A stretch of DNA of 64,000 nucleotides from Candidatus Versatilivorator sp. (GCA_965207735.1 OZ242296.1:288001-352000); one strand, 5' to 3'; shown: positions 8,001-11,649, counted from the stretch's first letter. The notes: generated by a model not told the origin, from the letters alone. Numbers and translations: made by a program.

Positions 8001-11000
8001 CTCTCCCATCACCGACTATGACGTGCAGTACCGGGAAAAGGACAGGGGGGGCTTCCGTGACGGGGGCCACGACGGGCCGGGTCTCAGCTTGACGCTTTCC
8101 GACCTCGAGCCGGGCACGGTCTACGAGGTGCAGGTAAAAGCCAGAAACGACGAGGGGGCGAGCGACTGGTCGGTCTCCGGCGAGGGGATGACCGTGACGC
8201 CGCTGACGGTAGTGATGACGAGCGGGACCGAGTCTCCGGTGTCGGGGGCGTTCACGGTGCGGTTCAGTTTCTCCGAGCCGGTGTCGGGGTTCAGCGGGAG
8301 CGACATCGAGTCCGACCAGGATCCTGAGTGCACGGACGATCTGAACAATCCGGTGTTCTGCGATCCGGGGATCGGGGATCTGCAGACAGCGGACGACCGG
8401 GTCTTCACCACCACGGTGACCCCCGAGACCGGCAGTGTGGCCCACAGCTATACGTTGACGCTGACGGTTCCGGGAGGCGCCGTCAGCTCGTTGGTGGGCA
8501 GCAAGCCGAACGAGGAGCCGGAGGAGCCGCTGGAGGTCCGGGTGTCGCCGCCGGGGGCGCCCGAACCGATTTCGGCATTGAGTCCGGGAGCCAATGGGGC
8601 AAACGCGTCGGTGAGGTTGAGCTGGACCCGGCCCTCGGATAACGGAGGCTCGGCCATTATCCGCTACGAGTACCGGTACGCGGCCATTGGGGAGGCATGG
8701 AGCGAGTGGGAGAACGTGGAAGCGGGGTCGAGCGGGGTGACGGTGGGGAACCTGATCAACGGCCGGGAATATGTCATCGAGGCGCGGGCGGTCAATGCTC
8801 TGGGCAAGGGCGGGGTAGAGACGGTGATGGCCACTCCGGTGGCTGGTGGCGGCAATGGTAGCGGTGGAGGCGGCGGAGGAGGAGGCGGCGGAGGAGGTGG
8901 CCTGCTGTTTGCGCCGGAGGCGCCGGCAGTCCTGACGGCGACACCCGGGGACGGGGCGGTGCGGTTGGCGTGGAGCCTGCCGGAAAGCGACGGGGGCGCC
9001 GAGATCCTGCGCTATGAGTACCGACTGAAAGAGGGCCTGGGAGAGTTCAGCGAGTGGACACCCATCCCGGACAGCGCTCCCGGGGAGGTCAACGCCTCCG
9101 GCTACACCCTCATGGGGCTTCTCAACGGGACGGTCTATGCCTTGGAGCTGCGTGGGGTCAACCAGATCGGCAACGGGCGGGAGACGGAGGCGGTGGAGGC
9201 GGTGATGCCTCTGGACCCGGCCTATCGGTCGAACTTCCGGGCGGAGGACCTGGAGGGTGGAGAGGCCGGATTGGAGTGGACGCCGTTTGGAGGAAGCCGG
9301 CGGAGTCTGAAGGTGAGGTTTGGAGGGGGGCTGCGGTTCGAGGAGAGCGAGCTGGACACAGCGGGGGAAGTGACGGCGACCCGCATGGGGAGCTACCGGT
9401 ACCGCTACACCAGCCGGACGACGGGAGAGCTGAGCCTGGACTACGACGGGGGGGAGTCGTGCGAACTGCGGATGAGCTTCAGCGGAGTGGGAGCAGGCAG
9501 CTACAGCTACCGCTGCGGGGGCGCGTTGCAGGGACAGGGGAGCTTCCGGCTGAGCGAGCTGAACCGGGTGCCGGAGATCACCAGCCCGGGGCAGTTCGAG
9601 GTGGTGGAGAACCAGACGAAGGTAGTGCGGCTGGAGGCGGTGGACTCCGACGAGGGAGACGAGGTTGCCGGCTACGGGATCGCGGGAGGAGCGGACGGGG
9701 CGCTGTTTAGGGTAGTTGAGCAGACGGGAGAGCTGAGCTTCACGGAGGCGCCGGACTACGAGAGGCCTGCCGATGCGGTGAGCGCGGAGCCCGAAAGCCC
9801 TGCAGGAGACAACGAATACGTGGTGGTGGTGGAGGCGAGGAGCGGAGAGGGAGAGAGGGAACGGAGGAGGAGCCGGACGATCCGGGTACGGGTGAGTGAC
9901 GAGGAGGAGCCGCCGGAGGCGCCGCCGGCTCCGGAGGTGAGAGCTGAGGGCACGGACAGCCTGGCGGTGAGCTGGTTCGAGCCTGAGAACCGTGGGCCTG
10001 AGATCACCGGCTATGAGGTGCGCTACCGGGAGGAGGGAGAGGAAGGCTACAGGGACGGGGGGCATGAGGGGACGGGACTCATGTTGACGCTGACGGGCCT
10101 CGAGGAGGAGAGGCTCTACCGGGTGGAGGTGAGGGCCATGAACGAAGAGGGGAGGGGTGAGTGGTCGCAGCCGAGGGAAAGCAGGACGGGGATGGAGGAA
10201 ACGGGGTCGCTGTTCGTTCCGGTGATCTTGTCCTCGGCGGGGCGGAACAACTCGTTTTTCACCTCGGAGCTGACGCTGACCAACCGTGGGATGGAAGAGG
10301 CCACCCTCCACTACATCTACACGGCCGAACGGGGAGGAGGGAGCGGGAGGGCTTCGGACATACTCCCTGCAGGCCGGCAGAAGATCGAGATCGACGCCCT
10401 GGACTATCTGAGGGGTCTGGGGGTACCGATTCCCGCAACCGGGAACCGGATCGGGACATTGAGGGTGGAGGTCAAGCTGGGCTCCGAGGTGGAGGCGGTG
10501 GTGCGGACCACGACGGCGGTGCCTGAGGGGAGGGCGGGGCTGGCCTACCTGGGGGTGGCCGAGGAGGAAGGGTTTACGGAGCCGGTCTACCTGTGCGGGC
10601 TCAGGCAGAACAGCCAGGATCGCTCGAACGTGGCCTTCCAGAACATGGGGACCTCAGAAGAGGGAGCGATCACGTTGAGGACCACGGTCTACTCGGGAGA
10701 GGCGGGGGATACGACGCTCCGCGTGCTGAAGGACGTGGTGCTGATGCCGGGAGGGTTTCACCAGTACTCGGGGCTGCTGAGCAGTGTGGAGAACGGCTAC
10801 GTGAAGGTGGAGCGTGTGGAGGGAGAGGCGCCCTTCTATGCCTACGGGGTGATCAACGACCAGGGGAACTCGGACGGGTCGTTCGTCTTTCCGGTGACGG
10901 CCAGTTCATTGACGGGGACAACCCGACAGACCTTGCCCGTAATTGTGGAGACCGGGGAGTTCACCAGCGAGCTGACGGTGACGAACTTCTCCGAGGAGCC

Positions 11001-11649: not shown

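Follow-up and report, generated by a model that had tools for sequence, protein, structure and literature searches.

How proteins built of LRR, NHL, cadherin, or Fn3 domains are kept on the cell surface is a standing question for sponge symbionts, among which are the bacteria of Candidatus Versatilivorator. For background on eukaryote-like proteins, see PMC10947273. The window analyzed here, a stretch of 64 kb of DNA from one such bacterium, raises this question in a concrete form, since very long genes in it end with the same region of 478 residues, called here the ARE module. The reading that we favor, with a probability of roughly 0.55, is that the module is an uncleaved, position-independent, non-covalent surface tether copying the anchor of an S-layer-like protein, with carriers exported by Sec and probably by type II secretion, and then held by glycan binding.

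Copies of the module and their carriers

The first copy (10213-11649, plus strand; 478 aa and a stop) is the C-terminal end of a 3218-aa ORF (1993-11649, plus strand), which combines a signal-peptide-like start, an M12B reprolysin-like protease, NHL repeats, and SWM, Fn3, and cadherin domains. Copies 2 (38675-40111) and 3 (51384-52820), both on the plus strand, also have 478 aa, are ORF-terminal, and are 92% identical to copy 1. They close carrier protein 2 (30614-40111, plus strand; 3165 aa, with Spondin_N, SWM, Fn3, and cadherin) and carrier protein 3 (46866-52820, plus strand; 1984 aa, with SWM, Fn3, and cadherin). In all three pairs of full copies, synonymous codon changes outnumber non-synonymous ones (53/37, 56/38, and 43/25). 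A partial copy (44962-46083, plus strand; module residues 106-478) is the 3' end of a broken carrier gene. The 5' pieces of this gene (43294-44961, plus strand) comprise an SWM-type repeat, a stop at 44499, a fragment labeled subtilase-like from reading its sequence by eye, and a frame-shifting, deletion-type junction near 44960. Two runs of the same sample each provide a contig that spans 43200-44990 without differences; this support is not independent, because the sample is probably the source sample. All the copies listed in the preliminary description, three of identical length and one partial, were found. No promoter- or terminator-like site was seen 3' of copy 1.

Between the carrier genes of the window, hybrid sensor kinase or OmpR-type regulator genes are located at 3-1313, 11754-12524, and 40216-42573, one of them being a short form. 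Similar genes are found near several other carriers in the genome. The window also encodes a 5790-aa Calx-beta/Fn3 protein (12836-30208) devoid of the module. Its C-terminus resembles three autotransporter-type ORFs located elsewhere in the genome (E 3e-27 to 4e-13), the protein itself has no PF03797 match, and it would use an alternative display route.

In the 5.26-Mb genome (G000), 40 ORFs match the module, 36 of them in full, and these 36 carriers together make up 3.7% of the genome. Read by eye, 30 of the 36 begin with a signal-peptide-like segment, and for 4 of the six others the adjacent upstream ORF resembles the 5' part of a broken gene. A signal-peptide heuristic that flagged 27 of the 36 carriers was dropped, since it flagged 503 of 772 background genes as well. 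Stops, frameshifts, or IS-like insertions interrupt many carrier genes (in G015 and G016, and at 278972, 2056017, 2095017, 4015527, and 4102065 in G000), which points to a rapid turnover of the repertoire. The passengers present in the window are a reprolysin-like protease and NHL, spondin, SWM, Fn3, and cadherin domains; in homologues, LRR, sulfatase, and PQQ-type dehydrogenase passengers are found as well, among others. That proteins as unrelated as a protease and NHL, LRR, spondin, sulfatase, Fn3, and cadherin proteins share one module counts in favor of the tether.

Fold and conserved residues

Sequence searches of Pfam, NCBIfam, and the PDB with the module returned no match, in agreement with the earlier view that no characterized domain is recognizable by sequence, and TIGR03437 (Soli_cterm), another candidate, gave no NCBIfam match in the module. 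The AlphaFold2 model, built on 104 sequences (pLDDT 95.9, pTM 0.92), contains four all-beta sandwiches, where pairs of beta-sandwiches had been proposed. On the plus strand of the window, the four subdomains are A (residues 1-116; 10213-10560), B (residues 120-230; 10570-10902), A' (residues 236-357; 10918-11283), and B' (residues 361-476; 11293-11640). The two halves align with an hhalign probability of 99.95 (E 2.9e-38), so that the A-B-A'-B' layout of the preliminary description is real. Profile comparison relates A to A' and B to B', and diverse profiles relate A to B (97.35, E 1.6e-11), whereas narrow profiles gave no A-B link, nor any link between a subdomain and the C-domain of the S-layer-like protein described below. 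The module is therefore a four-fold repeat. It is a tetrad, and in relatives the subdomains are arranged as AB, BA, ABAB, or BABA.

Among 48,161 chains, the best match to the model is TM1070 (1nc7), on subdomain A' (Z 11.6, rmsd 2.9, 109/116 aligned). It is the sole chain with Z of at least 8, the next one being ASRT (2ii7) with Z 7.9. Foldseek gave generic multi-Ig matches alone for the models of the module and of the S-layer-like protein, with TM-scores up to 0.30. TM1070 and ASRT (PF07100) belong to the ASRAH superfamily, described as an eight-stranded sandwich with a nearly invariant Asn in strand 2 and a Trp well conserved where strand 1 starts, of which the extracellular or secreted members occur as dyads or tetrads (PMC2739507). 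The Asn ending strand 2 (N24 in subdomain A) is found in 103, 94, 104, and 102 of the 104 sequences for A, B, A', and B', respectively. W367 is conserved in at least 90% of sequences in B'; the corresponding place in A, B, and A' of the window copy is occupied by Phe or Tyr or lacks an aromatic residue. At the profile level, the Atlas pointed to DUF5719 and ASRT for the module; a profile of 36 two-domain units recovered ASRT chains alone from the PDB at E of at most 5 (E 0.17); and, out of 32 distant segments, one matches Pfam ASRT (E 3.4e-4) and three match DUF5719. Taken as sequence evidence, this link to ASRAH appears weak but convergent. With TM1070 as the best fold match, the module can be placed as an unnamed tetrad branch of the ASRAH superfamily, on the grounds of its predicted fold, the strand-2 Asn, and the weak profile links.

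The module thus shares with ASRAH proteins an eight-stranded sandwich, the strand-2 Asn in all four subdomains, a dyad or tetrad organization, and a predicted pocket. It differs from them by an identity of about 10% and, at the pocket register, by Arg/Ala where His/Cys would be expected. Three families have been described, namely stand-alone, Chloroflexi amidase-linked, and actinobacterial lipoprotein forms (De Souza, Iyer and Aravind 2009, PMC2739507), and none of them is a cassette on dozens of unrelated passengers. The main text mentions neither Acidobacteria nor S-layers, and our literature search found no test of the predicted superfamily function since 2009. Membership in ASRT-like family 1, which is stand-alone and intracellular with the His/Cys signature SHEshChhN, was considered and rejected, since the module is fused, of secreted type, and has Arg/Ala or Thr/Thr there. 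DUF5719 (PF18986) is close in that it matches distant units over the cut-off and that the unit profile recognizes 20 of 20 DUF5719 loci from relatives. In contrast, this domain of unknown function does not match the window module, and the literature search found no paper naming it.

In TM1070, the predicted ligand pocket is lined by strand 2, H25, and C29, and sugar binding is a prediction (PMC2739507). According to a register counted from the conserved Asn of the signature in that article, and not taken from coordinates, the places of H25 and C29 would be occupied by R137/A141 in B and by R378/A382 (or G) in B'. R137, R378, and A141 are kept in 104 of 104 sequences. R98 of subdomain A, as well as R137, N139, Q184, D216, and D221 of subdomain B, are retained in 34-36 of 36 distant units, and B' carries the invariant R378, N380, and Q424. 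Instead of lining pockets, these invariant residues could form domain interfaces.

A periplasmic role has also to be weighed. Chloroflexi ASRAH tetrads fused to amidases have been proposed to bind peptidoglycan (PMC2739507), and the smallest unit-bearing proteins have only about 290 aa; the carriers might likewise remain in the periplasm as peptidoglycan binders. We regard this as highly improbable, because carriers reach 4859 aa in G000 and 7741 aa in a relative, and their cadherin, Fn3, LRR, and NHL repeats are typical of surface proteins. One protein (L175) consists of a signal peptide and one two-domain unit, with nothing else.

Position, distribution, and export

The module had been described as always located at the extreme C-terminus. 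This is true in G000, where all 36 full copies are C-terminal, 0-16 residues before the stop, but does not extend across the family, where 22 of 150 modules are not C-terminal. In the 241 proteins formed by the query and its top matches (70-92% identical), the protein always ends within 4 residues of the module. The same holds for 43 of 44 copies from other genera that are full and terminated by a stop. In the 150 best representatives, however, 122 modules are C-terminal (81%), 17 N-terminal, 5 internal, and 6 partial; 139 of the 150 are thus terminal at either end. The N-terminal modules mostly follow a signal-like segment directly, one of them lacking its start. A quick IQ-TREE phylogeny was computed with the window copy, all 22 modules that are not C-terminal, and 55 of the 122 that are; on it, the N-terminal label requires 7 changes, at least 5 of them imposed by branches with strong support. 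The module thus does not need a free C-terminus, and the repeated origin of N-terminal placement speaks against a sorting signal that is cleaved and in favor of a non-covalent tether independent of position.

In G000, 56 ORFs carry two-domain units; 16 of them belong to other subfamilies, several having the unit near the N-terminus. Secreted-type proteins also begin, or nearly begin, with other ASRAH-type subfamilies (L174, L179, L182, and L181; G000:C1:4999990-5005134, 4003727-4007905, and 4021284-4025663). In addition, one unit-bearing protein (L181, G000:C1:1968785-1971088) terminates with a very long GD repeat and a poly-Asp run.

Known sorting systems resemble the module in one respect. 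In T9SS C-terminal domains, PEP-CTERM/exosortase and LPXTG signals, and autotransporter barrels, one module also ends many unrelated secreted proteins. Unlike these, the ARE module is much larger, is also found at N-terminal and internal positions, and has neither a membrane helix nor a barrel. A T9SS C-terminal domain was rejected in view of the 22 modules that are not C-terminal, of PorV, found in none of five genomes including the complete G000 (the control being positive), and of the lack of an NCBIfam match. PEP-CTERM or LPXTG sorting was rejected as well. A terminal helix occurs in 0 of 36 carriers, as the preliminary description had stated for TM helices and for PEP-CTERM and LPXTG-type termini, and the exosortase family was not found in G000, although it is present in four other genomes tested. 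A 19-residue hydrophobic segment past residue 200 is absent from the 36 carrier ORFs, and a looser 15-residue window detects internal stretches in 3 of them, none C-terminal. Finally, the sandwich fold is not a 12-stranded barrel, which sets the autotransporter type aside, and none of the 4 barrel-type ORFs of the genome carries a unit. The idea of a C-terminal sorting signal is weakened accordingly.

The case is different for a folded domain that would target proteins for export. The type II system, or another outer-membrane translocon, would then recognize the ASRAH fold, so that the module exports its carriers rather than holding them. The predominance of terminal placement fits such a role, and the C-terminal share of 81%, together with the C-terminal location of all G000 copies, speaks against the tether. 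The genome also contains a complete T2SS, one secretin being located in a gsp cluster with K, L, M, and pseudopilin genes; the S-layer-like protein linked to this system appears to have the same terminal fold; and six class-level genomes without the linked GspD are also without a unit match. However, 480 residues with invariant polar, pocket-type residues are large for a signal. G016 and family f57 have modules, and the linked GspD orthologue was not found in them. In addition, no recurrent transporter gene was found beside the 40 carrier genes, their unannotated neighbors being read by eye; the neighbors are often IS-like genes and hybrid sensor kinases. An export domain is consequently unlikely in our view, and we keep to a tether acting after export.

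The genome further contains an LptD_N match, three secretins in all, and three autotransporter-type matches. A second GspD-like secretin (L184, G000:C1:1259075-1262242) has TPR and cohesin-like domains and is followed by two pseudopilin-like genes; orthologue-like secretins of this type are also present in genomes of other classes that bear units. Four unit-bearing genomes from other classes yielded 8 secretins, and the 6 that were compared are closer to PilQ or to the second GspD than to the linked GspD.

With a single query, the module was detected in 24 of 24 genomes of the family, covering 11 genera, and in none of 16 other genomes of the class. Named genomes with modules 64-84% identical are mostly Candidatus Versatilivorator or Versatilivoraceae (Terriglobia). 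Outside the genus, identity is 46-59%, and family f57 has full modules (E 2.3e-226). In a representative library, 1415 clusters match at E of at most 0.001. A 104-row profile finds matches in 16 of 300 sampled Acidobacteriota, and the profile of 36 two-domain units in 87 of 300, a count that takes in an unpublished genome (G062), as well as in 30 of 40 relatives. The suggestion in the preliminary description that similar motifs end exoproteins of Acidobacteriota is thereby borne out. No curated family names these related units in spite of their frequency, and our literature search, most subscription papers being outside its reach, found no description of the ARE module. Modules 79-81% identical are found on contigs filed as Acidimicrobiia (two records) and Aminicenantes (one record) (L081, L086, L089, and L128), owing to mis-binning or transfer.

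The module could also be one more adhesin domain, a lectin turned outward to bind host or environmental glycans. The fold is predicted to be sugar-binding, and the module is strongly expanded in this genus, with 18-40 matches per genome. Yet each protein has one copy, in terminal position, on enzymes and adhesins alike; the carriers show no other anchor; and all 11 genera of the family have the module. We give this lectin only a slight chance, and return to the tether and to the protein whose anchor it would copy.

A candidate S-layer protein and its relation to the module

Just downstream of the gsp cluster, two paralogous secreted-type proteins of about 550-570 aa, acidic and rich in Ala, Gly, Thr, and Asp, are encoded; neither has a family match. 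The paralogues (L183:3118-4866 and L183:143-1912, minus strand; G000:C1:2243642-2248326) are variable and flank a DUF1573 gene. The model of one of them, the S-layer-like protein P0385 (pLDDT 83), comprises Ig/CnaA-like domains and a C-terminal domain, the best match of which is again TM1070 (Z 12.1, rmsd 2.2, 105/116). However, this C-domain lacks the pocket Arg, having Asp, Thr, or Ser instead, and its alignment to the units is weak (hhalign probability 5-9), so that a ligand shared with the module is hypothetical.

Homologues of P0385 occur in 32 of 41 related genomes, with identities of 30-83% among the matches. Of these 41 genomes, 30 have both the S-layer-like gene and the GspD orthologue, 8 have neither, and 2 have only one; G019, with partial matches only, was left out. 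The two genes are at most 10 kb apart in 24 of the 30 genomes, which are kin and not independent, on different contigs in 5, and far apart in one. The same linkage is found in three further genomes of family f50. A search of the 300 sampled Acidobacteriota, with 4 scored candidates for each genome, recovered the S-layer-like gene in 7 of them vs. the 87 with the two-domain unit. Codon usage, taken as a proxy for expression, gave no usable signal for this protein.

The S-layer genes slr4, npdA, and vapA adjoin T2SS (gsp) clusters (PMC7821379, PMC10765051). P0385 resembles Slr4 (PMC7821379), NpdA (PMC10765051), and VapA (cited there) by its size of about 550 aa, its signal peptide, and the proximity of its gene to a gsp cluster. 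It differs in that the Slr4 family (PF19526) matches neither G000 nor any of 19 aligned P0385 homologues. The module itself, compared with these T2SS-linked S-layer proteins, is a cassette on passengers and not a lattice protein. As a lead only, 10% of a neighbor cluster of P0385 in the Atlas are Slr4 members (score 0.90). From these similarities, P0385 may be considered as an S-layer-like protein representing a candidate, undescribed S-layer system. Our literature search found no description of an Acidobacteriota S-layer gene. S-layers are reportedly present on Paludibaculum fermentans, which is not used as evidence here.

A tie between the two proteins comes from chimeras. In G001 and G014, S-layer-like N-domains are joined to a full ARE module that takes the place of the single ASRAH domain (L230, E 3.9e-65 and 2e-232; L231, E 4.9e-32 and 5.8e-190). 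In 17 loci, 14 of them picked from partial matches or for the linked locus and 3 further ones, sixteen genes other than the S-layer-like gene itself have such N-domains. ASRAH units follow in frame in 11 of them and in the next frame in one, and were not detected in 4; none of the 16 has the single C-domain alongside ASRAH units. In G005, a carrier gene lies between gspD and the S-layer-like gene. The surface-anchoring role put forward at the start, now with an S-layer link, thus gains support from the TM1070-like C-domain predicted for P0385, the gspD linkage, and the chimeras. In contrast, 2 full modules and 45 unit matches were counted in G016 (97% complete), which has neither the S-layer-like gene nor the linked GspD, and f57 and other unit-bearing lineages of other classes have no S-layer-like match. 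The tether role may thus be general, and the tie to the S-layer confined to some lineages.

The chimeras would also suit a tetrad that joins or forms the S-layer lattice by protein contacts, with no glycan involved, by replacing four subunits at a symmetry hub. TM1070 is a tetramer (PMC2739507), the Slr4 lattice is p4 (PMC7821379, PMC10765051), and the C-terminal Pfam part of Slr4 weakly matches one distant unit (L229:1123-1794; E 0.0031, 1/32 segments), which also matches DUF5719 over the cut-off; Slr4 may itself end in an ASRAH domain, judging from this match. Against such co-assembly, most carriers have no S-layer-like N-domains with which to contact a lattice, the module stays conserved from one genus to another (46-59%) while the S-layer-like protein is more variable (30-83%), and some unit-bearing lineages have no detected S-layer-like homologue. 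Lattice co-assembly seems to us quite unlikely, and a glycan-binding tether is preferred.

SLH and CWB2 repeats, common to S-layer proteins and exoproteins, are repeated, non-covalent, found at either terminus, and likely glycan-binding. By analogy, the ARE module may be compared with them, being repeated, probably non-covalent and glycan-binding, placed at either terminus, and built on a fold that seems common to an S-layer-like protein and many exoproteins. Unlike them, it is an all-beta tetrad in a diderm, and not a helical triad. The SLH domain itself was rejected, as the module is nearly all beta and has no Pfam match; SLH (PF00395) was not found in any of five genomes tested. What is new in the module is its architecture and use within the ASRAH superfamily; it is not an SLH domain, although it would work in a similar way.

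Starting from the observed repeats, distribution, positional freedom, predicted fold, gene linkage, and chimeras, we infer secretion, ligand, tetramer geometry, and S-layer identity as follows. Carriers would cross the inner membrane by Sec, as their signal-peptide-like starts, read by eye, suggest, and then the outer membrane in a folded state, most likely using the type II system present in the genome. The four sandwiches of the model would form, as a rigid tetrad within one chain, the pocketed tetramer that TM1070 builds from four. An anionic surface glycan, for example an LPS sugar, would be bound by the invariant Arg, Asn, Gln, and Asp residues, among which an Arg in both B and B' would occupy the pocket position of TM1070. 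The module would likely be a prefabricated copy of the anchoring tetramer of the S-layer-like protein, graftable onto any passenger.

A broader picture, which we consider doubtful, is that an undescribed S-layer of many Terriglobia is assembled from a protein exported by the T2SS, the single ASRAH domains of which form a tetrameric envelope-binding hub. The ARE module would be a single-chain copy of this hub, a plug-in foot mounting giant eukaryote-like adhesins and enzymes where the S-layer is anchored, and ASRAH would be a widespread Gram-negative counterpart of SLH, perhaps also ending Slr4. A tether role would explain how LRR, NHL, cadherin, and Fn3 proteins stay on the surface without barrel or sortase, give the ASRAH superfamily a concrete role, and provide a graftable anchor of 240-480 aa. 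Across several Acidobacteriota families, a gene linked to a type II system is also named as a candidate for the S-layer. At the S-layer-like/gspD locus in family f50 (L196 and L198), O-antigen-ligase-like (Wzy_C) genes are found, accompanied in L196 by PMT-type glycosyltransferase genes.
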